Positions 22,925-44,689 of a stretch of 64,000 nucleotides of DNA are shown one piece after another (within the stretch, counting starts at the first letter, position 1; every line of letters begins with the position of its first letter). The stretch covers positions 1,088,001-1,152,000 of the forward strand of contig CAVTBR010000001.1 in the NCBI GenBank assembly GCA_963733055.1, read 5' to 3'. Source of the DNA: Candidatus Bathyarchaeota archaeon (lineage in GTDB: Archaea; Thermoproteota; Bathyarchaeia; 40CM-2-53-6). The notes beneath the pieces were generated by a model. That model searched no databases and was not told the DNA's origin. It saw only the letters and a list, made by a program, of their open reading frames with translations. Made by a program: the position numbers and the translations under genes.

Positions 22925-24973
22925 CTAGGGCTTATGTTTTCTCCGCCTAGTCGAGATTGTCACGATTGCCCAGATCAGTATCCCTATGGGTATTAGTGCG
23001 CCTACGATGCCCGCGATGATCAGCTGTTGCGATATGACTCTCGAAGAAGGAATAACCTTGAGCGCATACGCGTCCATTGCCTGCCCCGCGTTCCCGTAGC
23101 GGTCAACGGCGTTGAAGGAGAACGTGAAGTTTCCCTGCTCGGGGGTCTGGAAGTACATGTGCCAGGTACTGTTGGTGGCATTGTATGCGAGCGGAAGAAA
23201 GAATGTGTACCCCGTAGAGTTTTGGTAGGAACCCGTAACGTTGCCTAAGCTAACGTTGCCGAAAGTGCTTCTTAGACCCGTTCCGTTTGGGTACGTAACA
23301 ATCACGGGAAGGTCTAGGTTGCTGAATGCGCTTAAAGTGGAATTGTTTGATTTGAGCAGAAACATGAACTGCGCGGGGATCAGCTGAGTCGTAGAGTTGA
23401 TGCTCCCCATGTTCCCATATTGATCCTGTTCCGACCAGGTAACGTTGTATGGGCCGAGTGTCGTGTTCTGGTCGAAGTAGTGGGACGCGGACCAGGTTAA
23501 GGTTGTTGAGTTGAAACTGAGGTTCGGTACAATAGTTTGGTTTCCATGCGAAATTACTAGAGTGAGTGTTTTGTTGATTGGGGTTCCGTCTGGATAGGAG
23601 ACTTTGGTTGTGACGTTCAGAGATGTTGTACGTTGAGTCGTTGGAGGCGTGTTCAATTGAAAAACGGGTACGGCCAGCAAGACTTGGAACGTGAATTTGC
23701 CAGATGCCCCGTTACCCCAGGGATCCCGCATGCTCCAAGTACCGGTCCAATTGCCGAGCGTCGCGTTGACGGGGATTTTGAAGGTGGCGACTGGACTGGT
23801 GCCATTCAGTGACATCGTAGTTTTTGTGTGCGTCCCGCCGGGTTGAGTGACGTTGACGGTTACTTGGGTGAGGTTTGCGACGTTTGCTCCGTTATGGTAG
23901 GTGGCCATGAACCCAATCGTGACGTTTTGTGTGCGCTGCCAGGAGGGCTGTGTTTGTATGGTTGGTTGAAGTTTCGCTAAGACTACGCCGAACCCGTTTG
24001 AGGCCACGGGGGAACCCGCACCGCTGTTTCCGTAAGGATCCGTTAGACCTGTTGGGTTGAGTTGGAAGTGGTATGTGGTAATGTTTGCGGATGGAGGCGG
24101 AACCCAGGAGGCTACCCATTCGCCGATCGTAGCGTTGAGAGGAGTCAAAGGTACGCTGATTAGTTTCTGGCCGCCTGAGAGGATATCAACCGTGCCGGTT
24201 ACGTTCGTAACGGCAGATGCGTCTGGGTAAGAGAGGATGTAGGTCGCGTTGACCTGGGCCGTTCTCTCGATTTGGAGCGGCAACGTGTTGTTTGATCTTA
24301 CGCTGATCGTTGCGGGTGCGATAATGAATTCGGAGCTAACAGTTGTAGCTTGGTGCTTGTCGAAGGTCAGCCCGGTTTCGGTTGCTTTGAAGGTTCCGTC
24401 AGGGGCGGATGGCGAGAGTTTGAAAGTGTACTTGTACTCTCCAGTGGCTCCAGCTGTAATGTTCATTGGGAATCCTGGAAAAGTCTTGTTCGCTCCCGCA
24501 ACCTCCAACGCGATTGAGGAATTGGCCGCGAAGCCCCCACCCGCAACTACTACCGTTCTCGTTCTCTCGTATGATTGCGAATCCGTTCCTGAAACCCCGA
24601 AGTGTACCGTGGCTTCTTTTGTATCTGTTATTGGAGAGGTCGATAGGGTGAGATCGTAGGTTCCCGGAGGGTCCGATGAGGCTATGGTCAACTGGACCGG
24701 GGGTACGGAGGCGCCGTTTACGGAGGTGAAATGAACACCCAAGGCGTAGGGTAGGAGTTGCGTTGGTTTTTCGAGCCAGAGGTAATAGGTGACATTTGTC
24801 GCGAGATTCTGAAAGGTAACCCTGACCGTCCCGCCAACCCCCCATATGGGATAAATGGCCTGATCCGTGGAGATTTGCCCAGACACGGCCTTAACATGCT
24901 GACCGCTCCCAAAGAGCATTGTAACATAGATGAATGCAACAAGGCAGGCCGAAATAGCTCTCATTTTCTTCAT
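22925..24973 (-). CDS. Large surface glycoprotein with repeated Ig-like domains and C-terminal TM anchor
   Basis: Signal peptide, repeated YPDG..G.W..D.(Y/W)GN.G units, many NxT/S sequons, TM followed by RRRKHKP. Confidence 0.85.
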   Translation of the reverse strand: MKKMRAISACLVAFIYVTMLFGSGQHVKAVSGQISTDQAIYPIWGVGGTVRVTFQNLATNVTYYLWLEKPTQLLPYALGVHFTSVNGASVPPVQLTIASSDPPGTYDLTLSTSPITDTKEATVHFGVSGTDSQSYERTRTVVVAGGGFAANSSIALEVAGANKTFPGFPMNITAGATGEYKYTFKLSPSAPDGTFKATETGLTFDKHQATTVSSEFIIAPATISVRSNNTLPLQIERTAQVNATYILSYPDASAVTNVTGTVDILSGGQKLISVPLTPLNATIGEWVASWVPPPSANITTYHFQLNPTGLTDPYGNSGAGSPVASNGFGVVLAKLQPTIQTQPSWQRTQNVTIGFMATYHNGANVANLTQVTVNVTQPGGTHTKTTMSLNGTSPVATFKIPVNATLGNWTGTWSMRDPWGNGASGKFTFQVLLAVPVFQLNTPPTTQRTTSLNVTTKVSYPDGTPINKTLTLVISHGNQTIVPNLSFNSTTLTWSASHYFDQNTTLGPYNVTWSEQDQYGNMGSINSTTQLIPAQFMFLLKSNNSTLSAFSNLDLPVIVTYPNGTGLRSTFGNVSLGNVTGSYQNSTGYTFFLPLAYNATNSTWHMYFQTPEQGNFTFSFNAVDRYGNAGQAMDAYALKVIPSSRVISQQLIIAGIVGALIPIGILIWAIVTISTRRRKHKP

Positions 24974-25037: not shown

Positions 25038-26225
25038 ATGAGACGATCACGAGTGCCTTCTAGTGAGCCGGCCGTTGACCCTCTAGGCGACATAGAGGCA
25101 TTGACGCACGAGCTCGCTAGCCTTGAGGTTCAAATGAATTCTCGGAAGATAAGCAACCAAGAGTACGAGACTGCCTCAAAGCGGCTACGAGAGCGAATTT
25201 CCCAATCTGAAGCTATGGCGTATTCGATGGCGAAGACAAACGAATCGATCGCCGAAAAACTGAGAGGTAGGAATTACGGCCTTCCCGAAGTCCAACAGTT
25301 GTGCAATCATTTCATCTACGGTTCAAGAAGGGCGCTTGACCCTGAATTTGGTGCAGACCGTGTTCCCAAGTATTTTGTGGAAGCCGAAGGAGGAGCTAAA
25401 GCTCTCATGGACACCGCTCTTCTTGAGCGGATGGTCGACATTGGCATTCTGAAAGCCTCATTATTCGAGAAGATACTCGTTTGCCCGAAGTGCGGTACGC
25501 CCTCGAACGTTTTTGCGCGATTCAAATGTACGAATTGTGCCTCCATCGATATTGCGATTAACCGGATGCTTGAGCATCTTGCATGCGGAACTATCCATAA
25601 TGAGAAATCGTTTCGCGTCGGCCGTAGCATGATATGCCCGACGTGCAAGAAGTCGCTTCAGAAACCAGAGGAACAGCGGCTCATTGGGCTCGTCTGCACT
25701 TGTAACAAGTGCGGTGCCCACTTCGAGGATCCGGCGCAGAGTTTCTATTGCAGAAAATGCGAAACTGATTTCAACCTTCAAACAGGCATCATCACAGACA
25801 TCCAAGTTTACGATATGAACGAGAAGATAATTGGCGAGATTCGATCACAACTGGGTGTGCCCATAATCGCCGATATGCTCGAAAAGAATAATTTCCAACT
25901 GGACATCCCCGGACGACTTGCTGGAAAGGGAAGGAACGTTCAGTTCTCGATTGTTGCACGAAAGGATGCGTCTGTTGCAGCCATAGATTTGGCTTCGAGC
26001 GATTCCGAGATCTCCGTCGGACCCGTCCTGGAATTCTACGTGAAATTACTGGAGGCAAAGCCGAGCTTTGCTATTTTCGGAGCAATTCCGCGACTGTCGG
26101 AGCAGGCTAAAGATGTTGCCGAGACCAATAGAATATCTGTCGCGGAAGGCGCGACAGCCGAAATACTTGCACGGAATATTCTCGAGGTCTTCGGCGAAGG
26201 CGTGTTTCAAAAGGTGACCAAGTAG
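25038..26225 (+). CDS. Coiled-coil + Cys-rich TackOD1-like domain + degenerate Mrr-like (PD-D/ExK fold) domain protein
   Basis: CPKCG..CTNCAS..EHLACG..CPTCKK..CNKCG..CRKCE; C-terminal FSIVA..AAIDL..A.DVA..I.V.EG. Confidence 0.75.
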   Translation: MRRSRVPSSEPAVDPLGDIEALTHELASLEVQMNSRKISNQEYETASKRLRERISQSEAMAYSMAKTNESIAEKLRGRNYGLPEVQQLCNHFIYGSRRALDPEFGADRVPKYFVEAEGGAKALMDTALLERMVDIGILKASLFEKILVCPKCGTPSNVFARFKCTNCASIDIAINRMLEHLACGTIHNEKSFRVGRSMICPTCKKSLQKPEEQRLIGLVCTCNKCGAHFEDPAQSFYCRKCETDFNLQTGIITDIQVYDMNEKIIGEIRSQLGVPIIADMLEKNNFQLDIPGRLAGKGRNVQFSIVARKDASVAAIDLASSDSEISVGPVLEFYVKLLEAKPSFAIFGAIPRLSEQAKDVAETNRISVAEGATAEILARNILEVFGEGVFQKVTK

Positions 26226-26236
26226 GAGGCATCAAG

Positions 26237-27733
26237 ATGACTGCAACTCGATTGAGCGAACCAACTCAGTCCCGTGAGGCTGTGGTGGGCCATGTGATCT
26301 TCGATGAGGGTTTAGCGAAGGGTGAGAGCAATTATTGTTACATGGAATGCGAACATTCGAAGCCCCCCCGCGGCGTCTATGTGCAGGTGAATGATCCGTC
26401 GGGCCCAGTTTTTGTTGCTAGAATTGTCGACGGACCCTTCTACCCCAAAGGATCGCGGTCAACCTATTTCGCGTTAGAGTTGAGTGCAATGATAGTGGGC
26501 GGGCGAAAGACAGCCATCCAAAGTCGGCCCCAACCCGAAAGCGCAGTCACGTTACTCGATGCCGAAAGCACCCAAGACTACCTTGGAGCTACAGGCGACT
26601 TGAAACTGGGACGGTTGCTGGGCCAACCTGGAGTCAACGTCTCACTCCACTCAACCTCCCTGGTCAGACATGTTGGCATCTTCGGGACAACTGGAAGCGG
26701 AAAATCAAACACCCTCCAAGTTATCGTCGAACAGACAATTCAAACAGGACGGGGAGTTCTGATCTTCGATATCGAGGGCGAGTACGTCAGGATGAACGAA
26801 CCTACAGGAGAACTAGTCACAACGCTCGCTGAATTCGGCGAGAAACCCGAGGGAGTCAAAGACCTTCGCGTCTACGTACCCGCCCCGAACAGCAGCCTCA
26901 ACCCCGACGCAAAGAAGTTCGGTATTCCCTTCTCAGAGCTAGACTTGGAGATATTCTCCGAAGTTCTAGGTTTAACACCTTTCGAGCGCGTCTATTTCCT
27001 CGACATCGCGAAAAAGACCAAGGACATGTCGGGGAGCTTCCAAGCCTACGCCCTGAGCAGCGTATTGAGTACGTTGAAGAAGCGGATTGAGGGACAGATC
27101 GATAAGGCAACTGTCCCAGAGGTCGTGGCTGAAGCCCACATGGGCCTCTTCACCAAACTCTCCCTCGCAGACCGAACCGGAATCATCGACGCCCCATACG
27201 AGAAGATCACGGCCGAGATGCTGTGCGTTCCGGGAAGAATCTCGGTTATCGATGTAAGCGAATCCTCAGACCTTTTGCGAAACCTCTGCGTTGCCCATTA
27301 CCTTAGGGAAGTTTTCAAGTACAAAACAAACCACCCACAATCACCCCCGCTCATGCTCTTCGTTGAAGAAATTCACACATTCATCAGTAAAGGAAAGAGC
27401 GACCGCATGCTCGCGACAATCTCGATGCTTACCGAGATGGCGCGGCAAGGAAGGAAGAGAGGATTGGGACTAGGAATCGTTTCACAACAGCCAGCCCTTC
27501 TCCCGTCGGAACTGATAGAATTATGCAACACCCGATTCGTTCACAAGTTGGGATCAACCCCGAACCTACAAGCCCTACGCCAATCTACAGGAAACGTATC
27601 AGATTCGTTATGGGCTCTTCTACCCTCCTTGGGGAAGGGTGAAGTGTTGCTTGCATCTCCGGAATTCGAGCAGGCTATCGTAGCGGTGATTAGACCCAAC
27701 AAATCAAAGCGACTTCGAGTTGAGTTTGGATGA
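26237..27733 (+). CDS. herA: HerA/FtsK-superfamily ATPase (DUF87/HerA-like)
   Basis: RHVGIFGTTGSGKS (Walker A), IFDIEGEY, LFVEEIH (Walker B), ARQGRKRGLGLGIVSQQP. Confidence 0.88.
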   Translation: MTATRLSEPTQSREAVVGHVIFDEGLAKGESNYCYMECEHSKPPRGVYVQVNDPSGPVFVARIVDGPFYPKGSRSTYFALELSAMIVGGRKTAIQSRPQPESAVTLLDAESTQDYLGATGDLKLGRLLGQPGVNVSLHSTSLVRHVGIFGTTGSGKSNTLQVIVEQTIQTGRGVLIFDIEGEYVRMNEPTGELVTTLAEFGEKPEGVKDLRVYVPAPNSSLNPDAKKFGIPFSELDLEIFSEVLGLTPFERVYFLDIAKKTKDMSGSFQAYALSSVLSTLKKRIEGQIDKATVPEVVAEAHMGLFTKLSLADRTGIIDAPYEKITAEMLCVPGRISVIDVSESSDLLRNLCVAHYLREVFKYKTNHPQSPPLMLFVEEIHTFISKGKSDRMLATISMLTEMARQGRKRGLGLGIVSQQPALLPSELIELCNTRFVHKLGSTPNLQALRQSTGNVSDSLWALLPSLGKGEVLLASPEFEQAIVAVIRPNKSKRLRVEFG

Positions 27734-28502
27734 ATCGAGGAATGGAAGAAGGGTTGAAGAATTGAGTGCGACTGCGCGAGCCAAAACTGGAATTACAGGC
27801 TTAGACGAGGCGCTGGAGGGAGGGCTGCTAAGAAACTACGCCTATTCAATCATAGGCGCCCCAGGGACCGGAAAAACGACTTTGGCTGCACAATTTATTT
27901 TCAGGGGAGCAACGCAGCACGGCGAGAGCGGCGTTTACGCCTCGCTTGAAGAACAACCATTCGTCATAGCCAATAATATGATGCGTTTCAATTTCAACCT
28001 GTTCGACTTGGAAAGCCAAGGAAGACTCGTGCTACTAGACGCGGCCCCATACCAAGAACGGCCTGGTGCAGAGCTGAAGATTCGGGGCGGCGTTCTGGCG
28101 AGCGAGTCGTTCAACTTGGATGGCCTTCTCGGGGCGATAGCGAGCGCGCGAAAGAGGGTAGCGGCGAAGAGATGCGTGATTGACTCCCTGGACGCCATCG
28201 CCGGTGTCTACAAAACCAAGTCCGAGTACAGGTTCAAGCTGCTCCAATTCTTCCGCGCACTCTCCGAACTAGAACTGACAACTCTTGTCCTAACCGACAC
28301 GACGACTCCTACTGTTGAGAAGTTCGGGGTCGAGACGATGCTAGCTAGCGGTTGCTTCGTACTCCACGACGCCGAGAATAAGGACGCTCAGGCTCGGGTC
28401 ATGGAAATCCAGAAGATACGTGGGATCCGAGTTGCGAAGCGGATGCTCGGTTACAGGATTACACCAGACGGCTTCGAGGTTAGCCTACAGACAACAACAT
28501 AG
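27720..28502 (+). CDS. Single-domain KaiC/RAD55-like ATPase
   Basis: TGITGLD..GGL, GAPGTGKT, SLEE, VIDSL, IQKIRG. Confidence 0.92.
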   Translation: MSLDESRNGRRVEELSATARAKTGITGLDEALEGGLLRNYAYSIIGAPGTGKTTLAAQFIFRGATQHGESGVYASLEEQPFVIANNMMRFNFNLFDLESQGRLVLLDAAPYQERPGAELKIRGGVLASESFNLDGLLGAIASARKRVAAKRCVIDSLDAIAGVYKTKSEYRFKLLQFFRALSELELTTLVLTDTTTPTVEKFGVETMLASGCFVLHDAENKDAQARVMEIQKIRGIRVAKRMLGYRITPDGFEVSLQTTT

Positions 28503-28504
28503 GG

Positions 28505-29530
28505 TTGAGCGAGTTGGTTGTGGCGAGTGAAGTAAAGGAAACGGCTCCGACTGGAATTTACGCGAAACCTGAGGCACGGAAGCTTCTGGAATTTCTACTC
28601 GAATTCCCTCAAACCATACTGACGGCAACGCTACTTCCCTCGGACGAGTTCAGATTCGAGCAGGTCGAAAAAATCCTAGGCGAAACCTCTACAGATGTCG
28701 TTCAATTGCTTGACGAAATGACCTCCGCCAACGTCCTAATCTCTCAGCTCGTCGACAAGGTCCCCGCCTGTCCGAACTGTGACTCAACGCAGGTGAGTAC
28801 ACGTTATTTCTGCCCGCAATGCGCCTCGCACGATATCAACCGTACACACCTTTTCGAGCACCTGAAGTGCGGTAAAGTGGGGAACGAGGAGAGCTTCAGG
28901 AAAGGGGAGCAGATAATCTGCCCCAAGTGCCAAACCGTACTCCATGATTTCGGGGTGGAGTACAGGGCTATCGGTGTCTGGTATGAATGTAATAAGTGCA
29001 AGAACTCGTTCAACAACCCAAACCACTCACACTTCTGCAGACCAAAACACCACGAGTTCCCAACCGAGCGCGTAACTCTCGTCCCAGTCTACCAATACGA
29101 GCTTAACAGAGACTTGATGGACAGCATCAGGCGAGAAGTGCTCGTTTACGCGGACGCAATCGCGTACCTAGAAAACTTAGGCTTGACCGTGAAAGCACCA
29201 TACTCGCTTGTGGGTAAATCGGGTCAGTCCCATTCTTTCAATATCGTGCTGACCTTGGCAAAGAAAGGTTGGAGGGGCGAAGAAAGAACCGTCGCGATCG
29301 ATGTGATCGTCAAAGGTTACGCAACAGAACCGGACGTTTTCAAGAATTACATCGCCAAAGCGAGAGACGTGAAACCTTCCCAAGCATATCTTATCGCTAC
29401 GCCTGCCTTACCGGAAGACACCAAGGCGCTGCTTAAGGACGCAAAACTACCATTCTTCGAGGGACCATCACTTAGGGAGGCTATGCAAGCCTTCTGCGAC
29501 GGAAGCGTACTGAAGGAACACTTGACCTAA
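28505..29530 (+). CDS. Second TackOD1-like Cys-rich + degenerate Mrr-like domain protein
   Basis: CPNCDS..CPQCAS..EHLKCG..CPKCQ..CNKCK..C; GKSGQSHSFNIV..VAIDV. Confidence 0.78.
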   Translation: MSELVVASEVKETAPTGIYAKPEARKLLEFLLEFPQTILTATLLPSDEFRFEQVEKILGETSTDVVQLLDEMTSANVLISQLVDKVPACPNCDSTQVSTRYFCPQCASHDINRTHLFEHLKCGKVGNEESFRKGEQIICPKCQTVLHDFGVEYRAIGVWYECNKCKNSFNNPNHSHFCRPKHHEFPTERVTLVPVYQYELNRDLMDSIRREVLVYADAIAYLENLGLTVKAPYSLVGKSGQSHSFNIVLTLAKKGWRGEERTVAIDVIVKGYATEPDVFKNYIAKARDVKPSQAYLIATPALPEDTKALLKDAKLPFFEGPSLREAMQAFCDGSVLKEHLT

Positions 29531-29556
29531 GCCAGGTCCCCGGAGGCCAACTGAAG

Positions 29557-30039
29557 ATGTTAGGGCGCAGAGGAGCTTCCGAAATCATAGCCGCTATGCT
29601 ATTGATTCTGATAACCGTAGCGGCGGCAGTTCTATTGTACGCTTACTCCTCAGGCCTCATGGGACGCCTCCAAGGCGCAGCCGTTTCACAACCGTACCTA
29701 GAACAGGTCTCATTAGACTACTACGATTGGACCTCTTGCAACTCCAACCCTTGCCCCCCCTTAACCACCCAGCTGAACCTAACTCTCAGAAACGTTGGAG
29801 CAGCTAAGGTGACGATGTCCGATTTCTACATCTCAGGAACCAGAAATACAACCGCCCTCAAGTTTGGGACCGGATGCAAGTCGCCACAAGGCGTGTTGAA
29901 CGTGCAAGGGACATGCTGGGTGTCTTTCCCGTTACCGACCGGCTTCTCGGCCAGTCCCGGTATCGCCTATACGGTGAAGATCGTATCAAGGGACGGCGCA
30001 ATCTTCTCCTATTCTTGTATCGCTGGACAAGCAGCGTAA
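29557..30039 (+). CDS. Archaeal type IV pilin
   Basis: Class III signal peptide RRG|ASEIIAAMLLILITVAAA; YDW..LRNVG..YTVKIVSRDG head domain. Confidence 0.9.
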   Translation: MLGRRGASEIIAAMLLILITVAAAVLLYAYSSGLMGRLQGAAVSQPYLEQVSLDYYDWTSCNSNPCPPLTTQLNLTLRNVGAAKVTMSDFYISGTRNTTALKFGTGCKSPQGVLNVQGTCWVSFPLPTGFSASPGIAYTVKIVSRDGAIFSYSCIAGQAA

Positions 30040-30157: not shown

Positions 30158-30415
30158 ATGACCCAGGAAAAGCTTCTGCTAAGGCTAAGTGGAACAACTG
30201 CTGAAATTCTTAACGAGCTCGTTCAGAGAGGTTACTTTGGCACAAAATCAGAGGCCCTCCGAGCCGGGATCCTGAAGCTCGGCGAATCTTACGGGCTGAT
30301 CAGGCCTGCAAGCGACTACTGGAAGCAACTCGGCGAAGCGGTCAGCAGAAGTGGCAAGAAACTGTCCCACGCGGAAATCACTCGGGCGTTGAGAAGACTT
30401 GAGCAAGAGGCCTAG
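30158..30415 (+). CDS. Ribbon-helix-helix antitoxin (VapB/CopG-like)
   Basis: LNELVQRGYFGTKSEALRAGI. Confidence 0.82.
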   Translation: MTQEKLLLRLSGTTAEILNELVQRGYFGTKSEALRAGILKLGESYGLIRPASDYWKQLGEAVSRSGKKLSHAEITRALRRLEQEA

Positions 30416-30839
30416 CGTGGCCTTCCTCGACTCCAACGTTTTCATTTATGGGCGTCTGGAAGCCTGCAATTCGAGGTTGGTCATACTTCTCGCGCAGCTG
30501 GGAGAATTCGAGGTGGTTGTTTCGGACCTCGTTGTAGAGGAAGTTGAGCGCTTCTTCAGGGAGGAAGTGAGCAGAGAAGCGGCATACCTCGCCAGACGGT
30601 TTATTGAAACCCTTGCCCAGAGAATAGTCCACCGCGAAATCACGTCGCGGAAAATGAGAGAGTTGAAGGGCACAATTAAGGAAAAAGACCTTGAAAACCT
30701 TGTCGCGTTGAGACATCTCAAGCTCGAGTACCTCGTCTCCTTCGACGAAGATTACAAGAAGGCTCGTGTAAGAGAATACATCACCCCGAAGGAGTTTGTA
30801 AAACTGTTCAGCATGGAGCCCTATCCGACCTACTATTGA
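30399..30839 (+). CDS. vapC: PIN-domain toxin
   Basis: FLDSNVF, E, KD, LVSFDED. Confidence 0.88.
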   Translation: MSKRPSVAFLDSNVFIYGRLEACNSRLVILLAQLGEFEVVVSDLVVEEVERFFREEVSREAAYLARRFIETLAQRIVHREITSRKMRELKGTIKEKDLENLVALRHLKLEYLVSFDEDYKKARVREYITPKEFVKLFSMEPYPTYY

Positions 30840-31089: not shown

Positions 31090-32313
31090 TCAAGGAGTGA
31101 ATGTGGCGCAGGGTCGCGCGTAGAGGCCGGCTGTAAATCCGAGAAGTGATGAATATCCGATGCCTGGCGCTGCATTGTTTATGGCTATGCTGCCCACGAA
31201 TATCGCCCCGTTCGGTACTCCGCCGCTGGAAAGACTTTGGTCATACGTTGCCAGTTGAAATAGCGCTATGAATGTGCCATTCATTCCACTGGCTGCGTTT
31301 GGGTTCAAGGGGTCTATTGTTGCGGTCGCACTTAGAGTGGGTGAAGTGACGGGGTAGTATGCCCCGACATAGGGACCGCCGATGAAGTACATCTTTGAAT
31401 TCGACCCTGAGTCGGCTGCCTCTAGAATGATCGTGCCGTGGCTCACTTGGAGAGTGCCTCCGGAGGTATTGTTCAGTCTGACATAAACATAAATGAGTTC
31501 AGAGGGGCTGCTCGCAGCAGCATTCTGGATGATTGTAGGATCAACCCAGGGGTTCACGAAATAGAGGGTCCCCACGGAGCTCGGTCCGGATCGGGGCTCA
31601 GGGGCTTCGGCATGGCATGTAGATGACTGACTACTGTCAACGGGAAGAGAACAATTTGAGGAGGTACACCAAGCGATCTTAGTATCTCCTCTGATTAGGT
31701 TCGGTACAAAGCCGGGGATGGCCAGGGGGTTCGCCGCGAAAGGAAATTGGAAATTGAAGATTCGCCCTCTCGAGGTAACAATCCAGAGAGTGTTAGCGGG
31801 AGAGGAAGGTCCCTGGAGGCCGGAGTTCGGCAAATTGAAGGGTAGCCAGAAACGGACAGTATGGTTAAACTCCCCCGCGTTGAGATAAGAGTCGCTTTGG
31901 CTGAACCTGAAGTTGGCGGGCAAATTCGCTAGAGGGGCTGGTCCCAAAGCACACGGTCCTATGTTTCCTGTTGGAGGAGCAAAAGTGCACCCCGCAGCCC
32001 CCCCTATTGTTGTATTAATATACACTTGCACGATCTGAATGGCCACACCACCCTGATTGCTTAACAACATATCGTATTGACATACCGTACACAGACTAGG
32101 ACTGATTTGGATCAGTCCGGGATATACGGCCGTGAGATTCTCGGATAAGCGGTCAATGTTCTGCTGATTCATACCATAATTGAGATTTTCGTAGATGTCG
32201 TATTGCCGACCGATTAATACCAGACTAGTGAACGCACTGAGAAACAGGGTGAGAATTATGATTCCGCCGAGGATGCTGCTGACCGCCCGCCTCCGAAACC
32301 GTACTCGGTGCAA
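31090..32313 (-). CDS. Large pilin-like adhesin 3 (class III signal peptide)
   Basis: RRRA|VSSILGGIIIL; paralog of the next two genes. Confidence 0.85.
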   Translation of the reverse strand: MHRVRFRRRAVSSILGGIIILTLFLSAFTSLVLIGRQYDIYENLNYGMNQQNIDRLSENLTAVYPGLIQISPSLCTVCQYDMLLSNQGGVAIQIVQVYINTTIGGAAGCTFAPPTGNIGPCALGPAPLANLPANFRFSQSDSYLNAGEFNHTVRFWLPFNLPNSGLQGPSSPANTLWIVTSRGRIFNFQFPFAANPLAIPGFVPNLIRGDTKIAWCTSSNCSLPVDSSQSSTCHAEAPEPRSGPSSVGTLYFVNPWVDPTIIQNAAASSPSELIYVYVRLNNTSGGTLQVSHGTIILEAADSGSNSKMYFIGGPYVGAYYPVTSPTLSATATIDPLNPNAASGMNGTFIALFQLATYDQSLSSGGVPNGAIFVGSIAINNAAPGIGYSSLLGFTAGLYARPCATFTP

Positions 32314-32333
32314 TTAGACATTACCCGCCTTAC

Positions 32334-33584
32334 TTAGCAGCCGCTGCTCCGGACATAGAGGCCGTCCACAGCAATCACGAAGCCTTGGTATCCACCACCT
32401 ATTGTACCAGAGGCGGCGCCATAGGCTGGGCCTAGGTTGTTTACGGTTGCGGTACCAGTAAACATGTCTCCTGATCCGGAAGGCGAATAACTTTTCGGGT
32501 TCGGATAATCGGAGAACATTATTTTGAATATTAGGTAGAAAGTTTGACCGGGTTGTACAACCACGTTAGTTCCGTATGGGTAAAACTGATTGTTCACGAC
32601 CGTACCAACGTAGGGTCCGCCGAGAAAGAGTTGATCTCCATTTGAGGTCGAGCTAGCTGTCAGGATCGTCATTTGCCCCCAACTGAAGCTTATTGGGTTA
32701 CTGAGAGTGTTCGCGCTGTAGACCGAGACGAAAAAGCACTGTGCGCAAGGCGGGGAGAATGACTGGGAGAGTTGGGCTGACTTTGGAATAGTAATTGAGT
32801 ATACAATCGTGGGAGTTGTCCACGGGTTCAAGAAGTAGAGTGGGCCCGTCCCTCCCGCAGTCAACGGTTGGGGTGTCTCCTTATGGCACGGGTCGTTCTG
32901 GCTGTTGTACGCGCCGGTCGTGCCATTATAGGCGATCTTCATTGACCCGGCCTCGATGTTTAGTGGAGTGCCGGTGCCGCCTACCCCTTGACTTGTTGCC
33001 GGGAAGGGCCAGTTGAATGAAAATACTCGTCCTCGACTCGTGACTATCCAGATGCTATCGCTAGGAGTGAGAGTTACATTCGGAAGAGGCGTGATGCTTT
33101 GAGGGAGCCACAAACGCACGACGTGGTTGAACTCCCCTGACGAAATAAAGGAGTCGCTCTGGGCAAAGCTGAAGGATGTGATGCTACCGCTCGGATTGAG
33201 CACGCAAGGTCCGGGCGGAGTAATCGATGTTGTGCAACCATTTTGGCTCGGCTGACTAGATTGGGCCGTTGAGTTTATGTAGACTCTCGCGATTTGAACT
33301 CCGACCCCACCCTCATTCGCGAGAGACATGTTATACTGGTTGAGGTTGCACCCGGTACCGCATTTGGCTGGAAACCCGCCTACTAGTCCAGGATAAAGGG
33401 CCACGACCGCTTCAGAGGCGCGGTTGACATCCTTCTGCGCCATCGTCTCAGCAAGGTTCTCGTATGCATCATACCGTTGATTGACGACTACCGTCGTCGT
33501 TAAGCTAAAGATGATGATGGACAAGGCAATGATACCGCCAAGTATGTTACTGACGGCGCGACGCCCAAACCGAAGACTAAGCAA
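32334..33584 (-). CDS. Large pilin-like adhesin 2 (class III signal peptide)
   Basis: GRRA|VSNILGGIIAL; shared YPGL, WIVTSRGR, CH.E, NPW and GGPYVG motifs. Confidence 0.85.
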   Translation of the reverse strand: MLSLRFGRRAVSNILGGIIALSIIIFSLTTTVVVNQRYDAYENLAETMAQKDVNRASEAVVALYPGLVGGFPAKCGTGCNLNQYNMSLANEGGVGVQIARVYINSTAQSSQPSQNGCTTSITPPGPCVLNPSGSITSFSFAQSDSFISSGEFNHVVRLWLPQSITPLPNVTLTPSDSIWIVTSRGRVFSFNWPFPATSQGVGGTGTPLNIEAGSMKIAYNGTTGAYNSQNDPCHKETPQPLTAGGTGPLYFLNPWTTPTIVYSITIPKSAQLSQSFSPPCAQCFFVSVYSANTLSNPISFSWGQMTILTASSTSNGDQLFLGGPYVGTVVNNQFYPYGTNVVVQPGQTFYLIFKIMFSDYPNPKSYSPSGSGDMFTGTATVNNLGPAYGAASGTIGGGYQGFVIAVDGLYVRSSGC

Positions 33585-33605
33585 ACAATCTCGCCCGCAT
33601 TTACA

Positions 33606-34778
33606 TTAAGTGCAACCAGTTCTCACGTAGAGGCCGTTCAGGAAGACGTCTATTTGCCGGAAGCTGGCATCTTCACCCGAAGCCCCATATCCGTTGTTCA
33701 TGGCGGCCGTCCCTGAGAACGAGTCTCCCGGAGGGGTAGGCGTCTTTGGCGACAGATTTTGTTGCGTTATTTGAAAGATTAGGTAGTAGTCGTTGCCGGG
33801 GTTTATGGCCACATTCGTTCCCCTGGCAGCGAAGTGACGAACTCCCGATTGATTGTACACTATTCCTACATAGGGACCGCCAATGTACCATGGTTTAGAT
33901 GAAGAGGCGGCATCAGCTGTTAGAATTACCATCCCTCCCCAGCTGAAGGTTACCGGCACGCTCAAAGAATTAGAGGAGTACACGGCGACGTAGAGATCCG
34001 TGCTACCCGCCGCCAGGTCACTCATCACAGTTGATGTAATCCAAGGATTTACGTAGTGAAGTGTGGTACTCGCTCCTCCGGCGGGCAATGTGGTTCCTTT
34101 TTCAGTATGACAAGCGTCCGATGCGCTATTGTCAGTCCCGTTATATGCGACAGCCATAACTCCCGCGTAGATCGTTGGCGGACTTCCGGCTCCTGGAACG
34201 CCTTGGCCTGCGGGTGGGAAGGGCCAGTTGAATGAGAAGACTCGGCCGCGATTTGTTACGATCCAGATGCTGTTGCTTGGTGTGAGAGTCACGTTTGGAA
34301 GAGTAACCGTCTGAGGAAGCCACAAGCGAACAATATGGTTAGTTTCTCCCGGGTTAATGTAGGAATCATACGAGTCGAAGCCGAAGGGTGTAGGGCTTGA
34401 TTGTGGAGTCAGAATGCATAGGCTCTTGATTTTGGTGTTCGTTGGTGTGCACCCCGGAGGCTGCGCGGTCGAGTTGATGTAAATTCGAGCGAGCTGAACG
34501 GCAATATTGCCAATGTTGGCTAGTGACATATTGTACTGATTACATGTACTGCAGCCGCTTGCCTGAAATCCTCCCTTCAGACCCGGATAAACCGGCTGGA
34601 TTTTCTCTGCGTTGCGGTTGATGTCTAGCTGCGACATTGAGTCGACAGTACTTTGATAGGTATCGAATTGTTGAGTGAAAGCGACCATCGCGCCGAGCGC
34701 TATTAGGAAGAGGGCAAGGACAATGATGCCACTTATCATGTTACTGACGGCCCTGCGACCTACCCGCAACTTTCCCAA
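33606..34778 (-). CDS. Large pilin-like adhesin 1 (class III signal peptide)
   Basis: TTG 34778, MGKLRVGRRA|VSNMISGIIVL; same shared motifs. Confidence 0.85.
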   Translation of the reverse strand: MGKLRVGRRAVSNMISGIIVLALFLIALGAMVAFTQQFDTYQSTVDSMSQLDINRNAEKIQPVYPGLKGGFQASGCSTCNQYNMSLANIGNIAVQLARIYINSTAQPPGCTPTNTKIKSLCILTPQSSPTPFGFDSYDSYINPGETNHIVRLWLPQTVTLPNVTLTPSNSIWIVTNRGRVFSFNWPFPPAGQGVPGAGSPPTIYAGVMAVAYNGTDNSASDACHTEKGTTLPAGGASTTLHYVNPWITSTVMSDLAAGSTDLYVAVYSSNSLSVPVTFSWGGMVILTADAASSSKPWYIGGPYVGIVYNQSGVRHFAARGTNVAINPGNDYYLIFQITQQNLSPKTPTPPGDSFSGTAAMNNGYGASGEDASFRQIDVFLNGLYVRTGCT

Positions 34779-34791
34779 GGTATCTTGTCCC

Positions 34792-35307
34792 CTATGGCCC
34801 GCGAGCCGTGGCCATGACTTGATTACCGCGCTGGGTCGCAACAATGATCGTGAAGACTGTCCCTGAAGTCCAAGTACTTCCATAATTCAAGTTGAATTCA
34901 ACTACTTGCTGAACTCCGAGATCAAGCTTGGTGCTGGATGTAGGCGGGACTGGGCAAGGGTTCATGTTCAGGCAGAGCCAAGGTTGGGGTGGGCCAAAGG
35001 ATAGCCCCGGATTCCCATTAACGTAAATGGCCGAGATTACTACGTCTATTAAACCCACGTTTCTCACAAAAATCATTATGTTATGATTGGTCCCCGTCGA
35101 GTTGAAGAACACCTCCTCAATGACGAATCTTTCCTGAAGCGCTTGGCCCCTCTGCGAGAAGAAGAGTTGGGAGCCGCTACTGAACGCCCCAAACGATGTA
35201 CCAGCCCACGCCACCAATATCGCCGCAAGTGACATAGTTATCAGAATCATCAGCATGTTCGCGATTACAGTACTAACGCCTAATCTATTCCTCCATTTTC
35301 TTCTCAT
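34792..35307 (-). CDS. Minor type IV pilin
   Basis: NRLG|VSTVIANMLMILIT; ERFVIE..VRNVG..IYVNG..VATQRGN. Confidence 0.88.
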   Translation of the reverse strand: MRRKWRNRLGVSTVIANMLMILITMSLAAILVAWAGTSFGAFSSGSQLFFSQRGQALQERFVIEEVFFNSTGTNHNIMIFVRNVGLIDVVISAIYVNGNPGLSFGPPQPWLCLNMNPCPVPPTSSTKLDLGVQQVVEFNLNYGSTWTSGTVFTIIVATQRGNQVMATARGP

Positions 35308-35573
35308 GCACCTGCCCTCCGACCGGGAGCCTTGTCATGAATCTGGTTGGCGGATGAAAGGCCGTGCGGTTGAGTCCTGAGCCCATTGTAGTCGATTAGT
35401 ATGAGATCCATAGCGTTATCCGGAATCAGCACATCTATTGATTCGTTGAGCTTTACAGGCCCAATCCTTTGCGTCAAGTCCGACCCGCAGCCGAGAAGTT
35501 TAGCTAATGCTTTGCATATGCTTGCTGTACCCTCAATTGCCGCCTTACGGTAACAGCTGAGAGTCGTCGACAT
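35304..35573 (-). CDS. Small hypothetical protein within the pilus operon
   Basis: Fills the gap between methyltransferase and pilin; ATGA overlap with the pilin start. Confidence 0.4.
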   Translation of the reverse strand: MSTTLSCYRKAAIEGTASICKALAKLLGCGSDLTQRIGPVKLNESIDVLIPDNAMDLILIDYNGLRTQPHGLSSANQIHDKAPGRRAGA

Positions 35574-35610
35574 TGATGCTCCTCAAGTACTGCTGGTCAT
35601 AAGACCGATT

Positions 35611-36138
35611 TTATCGTTTTATGTAGAGATGAGTCCAGAAATGGCCGGTTTTCGCCCTAGCGGTCTCGGGGAGGTTGAAGGTATGATCAGCTGATATAAT
35701 CCTAGTTCCGTCCCTCAATTCCTTGCGAAGTTTAGGTTCGAGCTTGCAGTTTATCTTTCGGGAAAGGTAGGCCGTAACTATTGTTGCTTGTGACAAATCT
35801 TGCCCAAAGAAATCCGCGTTTACTATGCGGACTCTATTTTGCACTCCGTTCTCTTTGATCGCCATCTTGCTCAACCATGCGAGGATCCTGCTCTTCTCTA
35901 TCCCGACAGCTTGGGTTCCGTAGTTCTTGGCCGCGGCGATCACAACCCTCCCATTCCCGCTCCCCAAATCAAAAAGCAAATCGTCAGGTCTTGCGTCCGC
36001 CATTCTCAACATTTTGTCGATCGTTTTCTGCGATAAAGGTATGAAAACCGCTTGGTTCCTAGCGAGCAGGGCGAAGAAATAGGCGAGGATAACAAGCGCT
36101 AGCCCAGTGGCAATGGTGAGGATTAGAGGCAGAGCCAT
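35611..36138 (-). CDS. Membrane-anchored class I SAM methyltransferase (FAM173/aKMT-like protein methyltransferase)
   Basis: N-terminal TM; FIP..DLGSGNGRVV..ATIVTAYL..LEPKL..GTRIIS. Confidence 0.88.
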   Translation of the reverse strand: MALPLILTIATGLALVILAYFFALLARNQAVFIPLSQKTIDKMLRMADARPDDLLFDLGSGNGRVVIAAAKNYGTQAVGIEKSRILAWLSKMAIKENGVQNRVRIVNADFFGQDLSQATIVTAYLSRKINCKLEPKLRKELRDGTRIISADHTFNLPETARAKTGHFWTHLYIKR

Positions 36139-36177: not shown

Positions 36178-37059
36178 CTACAAACCCCAGACGAAGATGA
36201 AGAACGCCATGAACGTGATGAGGAGCAAGGCGACCGTGTGCTTCAAGCCAGCGCCAAGTTTTCCCTCGCTCATCTTGCCCGCGATTAGACCTCCGAAGAT
36301 CGCTTGTATGATGGTGGCGTGGAAGAGTATTGTTTTCAGAAGTGCGATGTTGATGCTTCCTATCCCGCCGAACACGCTGCCACCGCCACCTGCGGTTTGG
36401 AGAACGCTGGCCTGCATATTGACGATCTGCGTGAAGAATGTCTGGATTAGCATGATATCTGTGAATAGGAAGACGCCAAAAGCGATGTAGACGACGACTG
36501 CGTAAGGCCTCATCTGGGCGTATCTTTCTCGGTCTATGGTCTGTAGTTCACCAATGTGTTTGTTCACCTGCTCCATTATCTCTTGCGTGTCCCCGCCAGA
36601 CCTCGCGACCTCGGTAATCAATGTGGCCGTTCTTTGTGCGAGTTTCGTTCTTGCCCGCGTCGCGAACGCCCGCATTGCCTCATCGAGGGTTGCGCCCCAG
36701 GAGAGCTGGGCTAGGAGCCGTTTCAGTTCCGGAGTTAACGGGCCGTAGTCCCTCTCGGAAGAAACCTCAATTGCTCTAGTCAGAGTCAAACCAGTTCTGC
36801 CTGACTCCGCTATCTCTCGCAAAAGTCTTGGGATGTTCCTGTCTATTCCACGCTGCCACCTCAGGTCGAGGTATTCAACGGTCGCGGGCGGGAACAGGCA
36901 TATGATCAATCCGAACACGAGAAGTTGGTCCCATTTCAACGGCAGGGTTACACCTCGAAACAGAATGAGAGTTGCAATGGTAGCTATCACTATCAAAGCC
37001 CCTAGGGAGCCAGAGACGATTGCAACCAGTCGTTTCTCTCTAGGTTCGATCTTTGGCAT
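36178..37059 (-). CDS. tadC: Type IV pilus membrane platform protein (TadC/T2SSF)
   Basis: T2SSF domain; GLIAGKMSEG..AGLKH C-terminus. Confidence 0.9.
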   Translation of the reverse strand: MPKIEPREKRLVAIVSGSLGALIVIATIATLILFRGVTLPLKWDQLLVFGLIICLFPPATVEYLDLRWQRGIDRNIPRLLREIAESGRTGLTLTRAIEVSSERDYGPLTPELKRLLAQLSWGATLDEAMRAFATRARTKLAQRTATLITEVARSGGDTQEIMEQVNKHIGELQTIDRERYAQMRPYAVVVYIAFGVFLFTDIMLIQTFFTQIVNMQASVLQTAGGGGSVFGGIGSINIALLKTILFHATIIQAIFGGLIAGKMSEGKLGAGLKHTVALLLITFMAFFIFVWGL

Positions 37060-37060
37060 A

Positions 37061-37982
37061 CTAATCCTCCACCAAGATGCCGTCGAGCATCACGATAACG
37101 ACGGCCGCACATATCGGAATGATTCCATAAGTCACAAGCGTCATCATGGTAATGACAGAAAATCCTCCAAGCCCACCTCCAATCATGGCCATGACCGAGA
37201 ACATCACAATGATCAGCAGCGGGAATACCACGAGTAGAGTAACATAGACCTCGGCAAAGGCAGCGAGGCCTTCAAGCAGTTGTTTCGCCGCCACCCGGCG
37301 CAGGTCCATCATGACGCGAGTCGCATCGAGCAGGTAGCCCTTCATGTTCCCCCCCGACCGAATCGTCGCCACTAAGCCCTCCAAAACTTCGGCGAAAACT
37401 TTGGACGGAGAACGTTCCCGCTCGGCCTCTAGAGCGGTGATAACGTCGTTTCCTAGTATCTCCACATCCCTCACTATCTCGTTCGATTCAGAGGCGACTT
37501 CAGGCGTGGTTCGTGAATCTTCGAGAAGTTTGAACATGCGCGCCGGTGGCATTCCGGCGGCAGCTAGAATTGACAGGTGGCTTGTCACGTACGGGAGTTC
37601 TAAGTCCATTCTCTTGCGACGGCTAGTAGCGAGGAAGCCTGGAAGCCCATAGAGCATCCCGAAGACGAGAGCGCCTGAAAGAATACTCGCCCCAAAACGC
37701 GAACAAAATTGCCAGGAAGATAGGAAGGCCAAACACGATCGCCACAGCTAGAGTGGCCGAGAAACCCGTAATGAACGATAGAGCCGATAACAGCACGGTC
37801 ATGCTTGCGTATGAATGCAGGCTGATTTTGATTCCTGCCTTCTGGAGGTTTGACCCGAGGTCGGCGAAATGCGGGAGATACTTTTGCATCCTTGTTCCGA
37901 GGTACTGGAAAGCAAGCAACCAAGGCGCTCTGAGGGCTGATACGGTGCCTTCCTGAGTCGCCTTCTTCGGAGTCTTGGTCAT
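37061..37982 (-). CDS. tadB: Type IV pilus platform protein (TadB/T2SSF), split by a +1 frameshift at about 37692
   Basis: ORFs 37623-37982 (NLQKAGI..Y) and 37061-37732 (ELPY..AAAG..G.D..AL..SPS) join at GCG TTT TGG GGC. Confidence 0.88.
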
Positions 37983-40909: not shown

Positions 40910-41392
40910 TTAACTGGCCTGTCCGGCTATTGCGGTGTATGAGAAGACCCCACCGTCTGGCAACACCAGTTTAACTGCGTATGCAGACCCCGCAGTGACG
41001 TCACCTGCGAGTGAGCCTGTGGCTTGAACTGTTAGCGTTTCTTGGCATGTCGCAGCTCCAGGCGTCACAACTGGGGTAGCGCAGTCCCCCACCGCTGATG
41101 CTTTAACTCCGTTCACAAAATAGTCAGCGCTGGCGCCAGCTAAGTTAACTGTTGAAGAGCCAACGTTCTTGAGATTGAGAATGAGTTTAGCCGACCCGCT
41201 CCAGTCGTATGCCTCGAGGATTACTTGGTCTTTGGTTTGTTGGCCTCCGCTGCTGCCTAAGCTTCCCATTAGTCCGATGGAGAAAACGTAGAGTAGTACG
41301 GCGGCTGCGACGGCTATGGCGATGAGGAGAAGTGCGGCGATGATGACTGAAACTCCGCGCCTGCTGAATTGTTTACCCATGATAGTCATCAT
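40910..41392 (-). CDS. Probable major type IV pilin
   Basis: SRRG|VSVIIAALLLIAIAVAAAV; strong SD GGAGGTGA (41402-41409); own terminator. Confidence 0.92.
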   Translation of the reverse strand: MMTIMGKQFSRRGVSVIIAALLLIAIAVAAAVLLYVFSIGLMGSLGSSGGQQTKDQVILEAYDWSGSAKLILNLKNVGSSTVNLAGASADYFVNGVKASAVGDCATPVVTPGAATCQETLTVQATGSLAGDVTAGSAYAVKLVLPDGGVFSYTAIAGQAS

Positions 41393-43891: not shown

Positions 43892-44689
43892 CTAATGACG
43901 AAGCATTAGGAAGATTCCGGCGAAGACGGGGTCCCCTACAATCAATGTAATTGCTACGGCGATTAGTATGAAGACTAGAAGCGGTAATCCAGGCGTTACC
44001 CAGACCAAGTTTCGTGGGCTCACTTTTCTGAGAGATTCTGTGAACTCGGATACAACCTGTTCTCTGTCAACATCGACGTTAGAATACATCTGGAGGGTTC
44101 GGTGTGCCCCATTTCCGTTCTCGACAACTTTCTCCATAGGGTACAGGTAAAAGGTTGAATTCAGTTTAGCGACCGAGGTTGGAAACCCGGTGATGACAGC
44201 TAACACCTTTTTCCACGGGGGCTCACGCTCCAACCCCGCGAACATTTCCGATTTCAAGCGTACCATTGAGATCAGATTTCTTCCTAACATCCAAAACGCA
44301 ACCGAAATCGAACAAACATATGCGGTGACCAGCACGACGATTGGGAAGAAGGGGTGGACGAAGCCGAGTATTGGATTCACGATACCGGGGGGAAGGGGCA
44401 GTGTTACGCCGAGGCACATCAGCGCCTTTGCGTCAGCCCCGCCAGCCAAGCCGAAGAACACGAGTCCAAACGCGAGCAAGATTGACAAACCCATTGAAAC
44501 AGCCGTGAAAAACCAAACTGAGGGGTCTACGTAAATCCGGTAGATAGTGAGCGCGAGGCCGATAGGCCCATAGGCTAACCAGACCTTGTCCGGTACTTCG
44601 CGGGTCTTGAGGTCGGAAATCGCAGCGATCGTGAGGAAGACTAGAGTGATGGAGACGGACGCGTACTCGGAGACGCTGAGTGGATCCAT
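43892..44689 (-). CDS. pibD: Prepilin/prearchaellin peptidase (A24, FlaK/PibD)
   Basis: SDLKTREV.D, GGADAKAL, VWVTPGLP. Confidence 0.93.
   Translation of the reverse strand: MDPLSVSEYASVSITLVFLTIAAISDLKTREVPDKVWLAYGPIGLALTIYRIYVDPSVWFFTAVSMGLSILLAFGLVFFGLAGGADAKALMCLGVTLPLPPGIVNPILGFVHPFFPIVVLVTAYVCSISVAFWMLGRNLISMVRLKSEMFAGLEREPPWKKVLAVITGFPTSVAKLNSTFYLYPMEKVVENGNGAHRTLQMYSNVDVDREQVVSEFTESLRKVSPRNLVWVTPGLPLLVFILIAVAITLIVGDPVFAGIFLMLRH

Follow-up and report, generated by a model that had tools for sequence, protein, structure and literature searches.

A HerA-clade ATPase encoded with type IV pilus genes in one order of Bathyarchaeia, and its TackOD1 and KaiC-like neighbours

A distinct HerA-clade ATPase is co-inherited with type IV pilus (T4P) genes in one order of Bathyarchaeia. 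Its gene is the second of five at positions 25038-30039 of a 64-kb stretch of DNA from a soil Bathyarchaeia archaeon (contig CAVTBR010000001.1), hereafter the window, to which coordinates refer unless another genome (G000 is the window's own) or a related locus (L-numbers) is named. The five genes encode, in order, a TackOD1 protein, the HerA-clade ATPase, a single-domain KaiC-like ATPase, a second TackOD1 protein and a pilin. Mostly, the HerA gene is found immediately after the PilB-TadC-TadC core of the pilus operon, on the same strand. In the genus of the window the HerA block is rearranged and a KaiC gene has been gained, and in the window's own genome the block and the pilus operon converge. 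The two TackOD1 proteins are members of a family of pilus-locus proteins spread across the phylum. The five genes very probably form a cytoplasmic accessory part of the one T4P island detected in this genome, which covers about 22.9-44.7 kb of the window.

The first gene (25038-26225, plus strand) encodes TackOD1 protein 1, of 395 amino acids (aa), which matches PF18551 with 79.9 bits against a cut-off of 32 (2.3e-22). On the same strand follow the genes for the soluble, 498-aa HerA-clade ATPase (26237-27733; DUF87/HerA 97.2 bits; HAS barrel and RecA-like core), the KaiC-like ATPase (27720-28502; 260 aa from a TTG start; PF06745 171.9 bits, cut-off 26.6, 1.8e-50), TackOD1 protein 2, called protein 4 here for its place in the block (28505-29530; 341 aa; PF18551 125.7 bits, cut-off 32, 2.1e-36), and a 160-aa pilin with a class III signal peptide (29557-30039; TIGR02537 29.9 bits, cut-off 20). 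The N-terminus of the pilin reads RRG-ASEII before a hydrophobic stretch, and the protein also gives a weak UpsA match (3.3e-9). The genes are separated, in order, by 11 nucleotides (nt), a 14 nt overlap, 2 nt and 26 nt, the overlap of HerA and KaiC hinging on the TTG start of the latter. An initial annotation, made from the letters of the DNA, had described five packed, co-oriented genes of this kind, and the list of open reading frames (ORFs) and the Pfam and NCBIfam matches bear it out. It had also taken the two TackOD1 proteins for paralogues, each with an EH.xCG motif and about 5-6 Cys pairs. They are 30% identical over 273 aa and both carry EHxxCG; protein 1 has five CxxC plus HxxC, and protein 4 has four CxxC plus HxxC and a lone C178. 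A Pfam profile search found no REC domain in either TackOD1 protein and the window contains no NurA gene, the three NurA matches of the genome lying elsewhere, both as that annotation stated. The T4P locus that the block was said to face is likewise there, as a convergent minus-strand operon of PilB, TadC and pilin genes.

The HerA protein was modelled with a predicted local distance difference test score (pLDDT) of 86.8 and a predicted template modelling score (pTM) of 0.86, as a HAS barrel and a RecA-like core. Its best Foldseek match is the HerA of S. solfataricus (4d2i; 5.7e-30; query-based template modelling score, TMq, 0.69-0.71) over the whole length, and the model also matches the HerA subunits of HerA-NurA, SIR2-HerA and DUF4297-HerA complexes. 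The Walker A (GTTGSGKS) and Walker B (EE) motifs are invariant in 17 orthologues, as are many other positions, and fold and motifs place the protein in the HerA clade of the FtsK-HerA superfamily. It is predicted to have no membrane segment. All curated models for named members of the clade score far below their cut-offs: HerA_Thermprot NF040937 gives 102.6 bits against 800, NF040819 90.8 against 970, CedD 97 against 600, CedB 15.6 against 700, and two antiphage HerA models 57 and 54 against 850 and 800. The orthologues carry only such public names as 'DNA helicase HerA-like ATPase', 'ATP-binding protein' or 'hypothetical protein'.

A tree of 43 rows and 513 columns was built with a quick IQ-TREE search, with support from the Shimodaira-Hasegawa-like approximate likelihood ratio test (SH-aLRT) only; L062 (ORF running off the contig), L068 and the four CedB loci (which phmmer did not match at E-values up to 1e-3) and L097 (under 380 aa) were excluded. 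The 19 pilus-linked HerA proteins form one clade (SH-aLRT 98), separate from eight repair-type HerA proteins of Bathyarchaeia (100), from Sulfolobales HerA (100) and from CedD (98). The neighbours of three of the eight repair-type rows were checked, and consist of NurA and a calcineurin-type phosphoesterase of the Mre11 kind. The sister of the pilus-linked clade is a Pelagibius protein (97), the placement of which is unsure because its branch is long. The Pelagibius gene stands behind those for an IrrE-like peptidase and an uncharacterised protein of about 400 aa, in a defence or mobile-element setting. The tree broadly tracks genome groupings, with the window's genus as one clade and families f4 and f5 not each monophyletic; inheritance of the gene therefore looks vertical. 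All three NurA genes of the window's own genome lie far from the window, and a different, divergent HerA paralogue adjoins each of them (C1:242054-244059, C1:1559701-1561791 and C3:359640-360964 in G000). A search of G000 with the window HerA at E-values up to 1e-20 found no canonical repair-type HerA such as other Bathyarchaeia have. Identity with a housekeeping, NurA-linked repair helicase, the outcome that would have made the adjacency incidental, was rejected on the separate clade and on the pairing of the NurA genes with other paralogues. Identity with CedD or CedB was rejected as well, given scores far below the cut-offs, a clade apart from CedD and the lack of a phmmer match to CedB.

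A class-wide search of 301 genomes with the window HerA gave a two-humped distribution. The upper hump holds G000 and 21 further genomes, all of the same genus or order, at 40-77% identity and E-values of 6.7e-55 or lower, and the lower hump holds 47 further genomes at 24-29% identity and 1e-21 to 1e-27. Gene context was examined in 24 distinct orthologue loci of at least 40% identity, comprising 19 strong loci and five (L108, L110, L111, L117 and L122) added from a scan of species-representative genomes with the HerA orthologue alignment; the copies in G239, on a 2.8 kb contig, and in G152, where only the last 123 residues remain at a contig end, were left out. All loci at or above 40% identity are labelled Bathyarchaeia or Bathyarchaeota except one Nitrososphaerota contig and one 2.8 kb Methylomirabilota contig, and the next matches reach at most 33%. 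The two exceptions, L122 (Nitrososphaerota, 42% identity) and L004 (Methylomirabilota, 2.8 kb, 60%), have HerA genes of the Bathyarchaeia, pilus-linked type, and their labels may reflect problems of binning or naming.

T4P genes are present in 22 of the 24 loci, and in 15 (L048-L052, L054-L062 and L117) the order is PilB-TadC-TadC-HerA on one strand, with the HerA gene placed between a 130 nt overlap with TadC and a 147 nt gap after it. The proposal that the block is wired to the pilus is thus supported. A contig edge truncates L047, which has a prepilin peptidase and a TrmB-type regulator. Could the adjacency of HerA and pilus have no functional meaning? The orthologue in L122 has no pilus genes nearby, as such a reading would expect, but the link is kept in 22 of 24 loci, at identities down to 40% and through several rearrangements, and chance adjacency is highly improbable. 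Several of the loci also encode a protein family of about 500-550 aa, with 12 members that share a signal peptide, an 'LILTGNITV' motif and a C-terminal membrane anchor. A gene of this family lies directly 3' of HerA on the same strand in L054, L055, L056, L059 and L061; truncated copies stand at the contig ends of L058 and L060, and the family is also found in L049-L053. The placement after HerA, on its strand, recurs in several families of the order. Three members that were searched gave no Pfam match, and a fourth, in L052, gave only a weak Ig-like match.

Among the loci examined, the five-gene order is confined to the window's genus, where three of seven same-genus loci (L044, L108 and L111) have it intact. 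In these, as in the window, the HerA block is inverted and the first TackOD1 gene precedes HerA, and L047 has the same order as the window with a 4.2 kb insertion between HerA and KaiC. That insertion (1498-5747 of L047) encodes a Pol-beta-type nucleotidyltransferase. In L045, L046 and L110 the genes run PilB-TadC-TadC-pilins-HerA-KaiC-TackOD1, with the second TackOD1 gene and that for the surface protein encoded on the other strand; in L045 and L046 the pilin gene comes after TackOD1 in the same orientation, and in L110 it is oppositely oriented. These arrangements bear on the suggestion that the five genes are an autonomous system for nucleic-acid sensing and signalling. Tight spacing and co-orientation in the window would fit it, as would the recurrence of the order in the three intact loci and, interrupted, in L047. 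In the other three same-genus loci, however, HerA-KaiC-TackOD1 simply continues the pilus operon with the second TackOD1 gene on the other strand, and outside the genus two TackOD1 genes do not stand beside HerA in one operon, except convergently. KaiC, moreover, is missing from 14 of the 15 loci of other genera. A self-standing signalling system is therefore improbable, and the discrete five-gene unit of the initial annotation gave way to a pilus island with a genus-specific arrangement.

The KaiC-like protein shows a Walker A motif (GAPGTGKT) and an EE pair in its sequence. It consists of one domain of 260 aa, where circadian KaiC has two, and scores 144.5 bits against a cut-off of 408 with the circadian KaiC model and 40.8 against 215 with that for ArlH; identification with either was rejected on these scores, which are below the curated cut-offs. 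The KaiC proteins of relatives have 245-252 aa and start 19-52 nt after HerA, and the true length of the window protein is probably about 245-250 aa. The KaiC gene accompanies HerA in seven of seven same-genus loci. Outside the genus it was found in one HerA locus only, L052 (36% identity), upstream of PilB and not beside HerA; the other 14 of 15 loci have none, nor does L117, a sixteenth on a 3.6 kb contig, and KaiC cannot be counted as a fixed part of the combination, as had been supposed. A PADLOC search of the block gave no match for the TackOD1 proteins or the pilin and only a weak mad8 match (9.7e-5) for KaiC.

TackOD1 proteins are widespread: of 401 genomes sampled from the phylum, 231 have a PF18551 match. 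The pattern of protein 1, five CxxC plus HxxC, equals the TackOD1 description in the available text of PMC5847659. In 32 aligned relatives ten Cys residues, H119 and G123 are invariant. Context was sampled at 20 loci, a non-random set of high-scoring matches picked from different genomes: PilB and/or TadC occurs in 12 of them, a KaiC homologue in four and a HerA homologue in none. The TackOD1 gene of L079, L086 and L091 runs convergently towards the end of TadC. The 12 loci with T4P genes extend the published link between TackOD1 and T4P across classes. With no HerA at any of the 20, the view of TackOD1 as a partner of HerA did not survive; these proteins go with the pilus locus generally. The genome has a third TackOD1 gene (G000:C1:143271-144218, minus strand), in a 467-aa open frame at a great distance from the pilus locus; tblastn showed no PilB in its vicinity. 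In a further Bathyarchaeia genome an actin-family (crenactin-like) gene adjoins the TackOD1 gene (L048 15084-16358, plus strand).

Protein 4 was modelled from the 32-sequence alignment with a pLDDT of 88.3. The model has a helical, winged-helix-like N-terminus, a beta-rich zinc-ribbon region (residues 78-200), a long helix and a C-terminal domain (about 208-341). Protein 1 has an N-terminus that looks coiled-coil-like when its sequence is read by eye, then the zinc-ribbon array and a C-terminal domain that aligns with that of protein 4. The N-terminus of protein 4 aligns with winged-helix regulators of the MarR and Phr types at Z values of about 7, a weak match because middling Z values are common. 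Its C-terminal domain aligns with AF1548 (Z 10.7; root-mean-square deviation 3.8; 115 aligned positions; residues 210-333), and also with Bax1 (Z 9.4), NucS (Z 8.5) and XPF/Mus81 (Z 7.5-8); Foldseek matches of the protein include Cdn1 (2.2e-5), NucS (8.2e-5), Can2 and AF1548. The agreement across many nuclease families identifies the domain, as modelled, with the PD-(D/E)xK restriction-endonuclease-like fold, and so supports the nuclease part of the 'dead nuclease' label that had been given to it. The catalytic columns were assigned by reading the protein 4 model, not by superposition, and on this assignment the first Asp (column 246) is kept in 17 of the 32 sequences and is replaced by N in protein 4 and by S in protein 1. 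An acidic residue occupies column 266 in 28 of 32, with no Lys two positions on, and the next helix has the conserved K285 (30 of 32) and D/E288 (32 of 32). The canonical catalytic pattern of a nuclease is thus not kept, to judge from the model, and because of this the domain is possibly a dead nuclease.

The rest of the pilus island lies on the minus strand around the block. On its left, a gene for a 682-aa surface protein (22925-24973) with a signal peptide and a C-terminal membrane anchor, recognised by hydrophobic termini, and with a weak MG2 match (30.5 bits, below the cut-off), is divergent from the first TackOD1 gene and adjoins it also in L044-L047, L108, L110 and L111. On its right is a VapB/PIN-like pair on the plus strand (30158-30839; PIN 2.9e-4, 21.9 bits, under the Pfam cut-off of 23.6), between the two convergent pilus blocks. 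The pair is missing in the closest relative, L044, and because the blocks are just 59 nt apart there it looks like a recent insertion, outside the pilus island. Beyond it, the minus strand encodes three paralogous, large pilin-like proteins of 407, 416 and 425 aa (31090-34883), with RRAVS followed by a hydrophobic N-terminus; they are 35-47% identical to each other and relatives carry homologues. A 171-aa small pilin (34792-35307; UpsA 1.7e-5) comes after TadC in relatives across the class. An 89-aa ORF and a protein-lysine methyltransferase-like gene (35304-36138; NF041081 106.8 bits, under the cut-off of 200) separate TadC from the pilins here; they are also found in L110 and are not among the matches in L044-L046, and the methyltransferase-like protein could be a pilin-modifying enzyme.

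The platform protein of the TadC type is encoded by two half-genes on the minus strand, the second at 36178-37059 (293 aa; T2SSF 9.5e-19) and the first at 37061-37982 (T2SSF 3.2e-16), which is split by a frameshift near 37695. The frameshift falls at a TTTT GGGG run, and the window matches the ORF of relatives in two frames; in L044 and L045 the gene is one uninterrupted ORF of 306-308 aa. Either the assembly is wrong at this point or the only pilus platform detected in the genome is truly inactivated. Next comes the PilB/FlaI-type assembly ATPase (37986-39572, minus; 528 aa; T2SSE 1.4e-36), and tblastn with a PilB query at E-values up to 1e-8 gave a single match in the genome, that is, one pilus ATPase was detected. 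A second small pilin (40910-41392, minus; UpsA 5.5e-11; TIGR02537 26.3 bits) is a paralogue of the pilin at 29557, with 40% identity, and an archaeal prepilin peptidase (43892-44689, minus; Peptidase_A24 41.9 bits; Arc_PepC_II 53 bits) closes the island. With a PilB-type ATPase, a TadC-type platform whose first gene is frameshifted, pilins with class III signal peptides and a prepilin peptidase, the locus has the parts of an archaeal T4P locus. A scan of the window found no tRNA gene, and therefore no tRNA to mark an integration site; integrases were not searched for. Promoter and terminator counts came near the shuffled expectation, with a bacterial consensus that is inapplicable to archaea. 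Among sequencing runs, one of soil DNA contained 0.24 of the sampled words, and no RNA run was listed as containing them.

What does the HerA protein do at the pilus? The likeliest single reading, which we put at somewhat under an even chance, is that it serves as a motor that moves or processes DNA. A role on DNA is favoured because the characterised HerA-clade proteins act on DNA and because CedB/CedD and TdtA, discussed below, provide precedents for such ATPases in a transfer of DNA between cells that also involves pili. The protein would be a hexameric DNA translocase, recruited to the cytoplasmic face of the pilus machine, where it would move or process the DNA taken in or passed on by the pilus, in uptake or in exchange between cells. 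The TackOD1 proteins would bind DNA and would most likely control pilin and pilus genes; they are read as DNA-binding regulators because TackOD1 also serves as an output of response regulators (PMC5847659) and because DNA-associated modules appear in the model. KaiC might then be an ATP-dependent switch, specific to the genus, which acts on the TackOD1 proteins in place of a REC domain. A more specific version, in which the T4P machine has a built-in DNA pump, with a HerA hexamer docked at PilB/TadC to drive uptake or exchange and TackOD1 proteins that handle DNA or act as a gate, is doubtful.

The position of the gene right behind TadC in the core operon, in 15 of 24 loci, would also fit an accessory or regulatory pilus ATPase that does not act on DNA and that might help in assembly, in retraction or in export of the neighbouring surface proteins. 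Such a role would suit the secreted, anchored protein that follows HerA in five complete loci, with two truncated copies besides, and also the statement in the available text of PMC4858521 that archaea encode no PilT-family ATPase. The predicted fold, however, is that of a complete HerA with a HAS barrel and not of a PilT/VirB11-type ATPase. The characterised HerA-clade proteins in the literature surveyed all act on DNA, and relatives build the same kind of locus without HerA. On this evidence a role of HerA apart from DNA is unlikely.

A defence or DNA-surveillance role is suggested by the nearest relatives outside the orthologous group. HerA, perhaps with a nuclease-like TackOD1 protein, would in this case guard the pilus against viruses that enter by it, for example, or degrade incoming DNA. 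The closest non-orthologous relatives (L007, L125, L167 and L163) are in defence or mobile-element contexts, with scores of 134-150 bits against 85-99 for repair HerA proteins. The bacterial loci L007, L125 and L167 each encode a HerA-like protein of about 620 aa and an M78 peptidase resembling IrrE, among such genes as Cas12b/Cas1-Cas4, relaxase and helicase-nuclease, and L163, a relative from Thermoplasmatales, lies among McrBC-like, methylase and OLD-type genes. The PADLOC HerA models score the window protein at 98 bits, about equal to the 102.6 of repair HerA models, and solved defence HerA proteins carry nuclease or Sir2 partners, to judge by PDB titles. None of the five proteins, however, matched Sir2, DUF4297 or another PADLOC partner; TackOD1 proteins accompany pili that lack HerA, and the canonical nuclease motif, as read on the model, is not kept in them. 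The partners of about 400 aa that accompany bacterial HerA relatives are unlike TackOD1, with an hhalign probability of 0.2, and the pattern of the HerA tree looks vertical and unlike that of an island gene. A defence module at the pilus is, for these reasons, not a likely account. As to the bacterial loci themselves (L007 4452-8428, L125 3464-7434 and L167 3563-7638), HerA stands behind the uncharacterised protein of about 400 aa in at least L007 and L167, and the M78 peptidase, this protein and the HerA-like ATPase may be a conserved three-gene module.

Several findings weigh against a DNA motor at the pilus. DNA transport by the protein, its interaction with the pilus machine and its transcription are putative. 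The defence and mobile-element surroundings of the nearest relatives, just given, count here as well, and the pilus-linked clade does not group with CedD, nor does CedB give a phmmer match to the window HerA at E-values up to 1e-3. The HerA gene of L122, at 42% identity, has no pilus gene within 6 kb, its neighbours being genes for a ribonucleotide reductase, an aldehyde oxidoreductase and a kinase. HerA is patchy within the order (for example, it is present in 6 of 12 other genomes of the window's genus) and matched none of the 20 TackOD1 loci sampled elsewhere in the phylum; it is dispensable or optional for pili of this kind. No candidate membrane channel for DNA was noticed in the island, in which ComEC and CedA were not searched for. 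Since the first TadC gene is frameshifted, the pilus may be non-functional in the window's own genome, unless the frameshift is an assembly error.

The combination of genes had been offered as undescribed. This stands only in part: the links of TackOD1 (arCOG06883) and of KaiC to T4P are in print, in the available text of Makarova, Koonin and Albers 2016 (PMC4858521) and Galperin et al. 2018 (PMC5847659), but the literature search turned up no archaeal pilus operon described as containing a HerA gene, with the proviso that the supplementary neighbourhood tables of PMC4858521, which were not seen, may list one. What is new is an archaeal T4P locus with a built-in HerA-clade ATPase. Such a putative translocase in the core pilus operon of a widespread lineage of soils and sediments is a concrete, testable candidate for a DNA motor. 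Archaea are known to take up and exchange DNA in dependence on pili, and pili mediate natural transformation in methanogens; we know of no motor that moves DNA at a T4P outside the Ced system. If a built-in DNA pump is what these loci encode, it would be a cytoplasmic motor, outside Ced, for DNA transfer that depends on pili in archaea. If HerA is no more than an accessory or a defence add-on, the result modestly extends the known set of genes at pilus loci. Modelling also gives the 'obscure' TackOD1 proteins a structural reading as putatively DNA-associated proteins tied to pili across the phylum.

Among known systems, the closest in gene content are the archaeal T4P loci with arCOG06883/TackOD1, which share with the window PilB, TadC, pilins and a Cys-rich, cytoplasmic TackOD1 protein beside the operon. 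The loci described here add a HerA-clade ATPase, mostly behind TadC, two TackOD1 paralogues and, in the window's genus, a KaiC. TackOD1 also occurs as an output of response regulators (PMC5847659), and the available text of PMC5847659 and PMC4858521 describes the role of the domain as obscure. The published descriptions, in their available portions, mention neither a winged helix nor a nuclease-like C-terminal domain, both of which appear in the model presented here. KaiC-family ATPases are likewise known from archaeal T4P and archaellum loci (PMC4858521, as far as its available text goes; ArlH/FlaH), and the window resembles these in having a single-domain KaiC in a pilus locus. The window KaiC, however, is not ArlH, and sits between HerA and a TackOD1 gene in one genus only.

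The HerA-NurA complex for end resection shares the overall fold and the ATPase motifs of the window HerA, which in contrast has no adjacent NurA, falls in a separate clade and scores 102.6 bits against a cut-off of 800. The anti-phage systems SIR2-HerA and DUF4297-HerA are built on the common HerA scaffold and score similarly in profile searches, and the nearest outgroup relatives of the pilus-linked clade are in defence islands; the window differs in that it lacks a Sir2 or DUF4297 partner and that its pilus context is conserved. The Ups and Ced systems of Sulfolobales combine, like the window, a T4P with HerA-clade ATPases, and the window pilins give weak UpsA matches. We take the Ups and Ced genes to lie apart in the genome. 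According to the available text of PMC11823120 and PMC11868833, DNA import, in which Ups pili also take part, requires the HerA-clade proteins CedB and CedD, and Ups and Ced are two separate systems, whereas the ATPase of the window type lies in the pilus operon. The N-terminal domains of CedB and CedD are, in those sources, VirB4-like, whereas the window HerA begins with a HAS barrel like that of repair HerA.

The natural competence system of Thermus is built on type IV pili, and the TdtA operon of Thermus thermophilus presumably belongs to a mobile element. Required in the donor for DNA donation, TdtA is a hexamer like HerA and is found in soluble and envelope fractions alike, as given in the available text of PMC5365140. 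It is thus like the proposed function of the window HerA in being a HerA-like ATPase for DNA transfer between cells, the partner cell using natural competence (PMC5365140). It differs in being bacterial and in standing outside a pilus operon: its own operon, in that account, encodes a nuclease like NurA together with a restriction enzyme and a methylase. The conjugation modules of thaumarchaeal integrative elements (PMC6563490, available text) again bring FtsK-HerA ATPases together with TadC, FlaI-type ATPases, a prepilin peptidase and pilins, as the window does. Those modules, however, carry homologues of VirB4, VirD4, VirB6/VirB3, TFIIB and ParB and are on mobile elements, whereas the tree of the pilus-linked HerA proteins broadly follows the groupings of the genomes that encode them.

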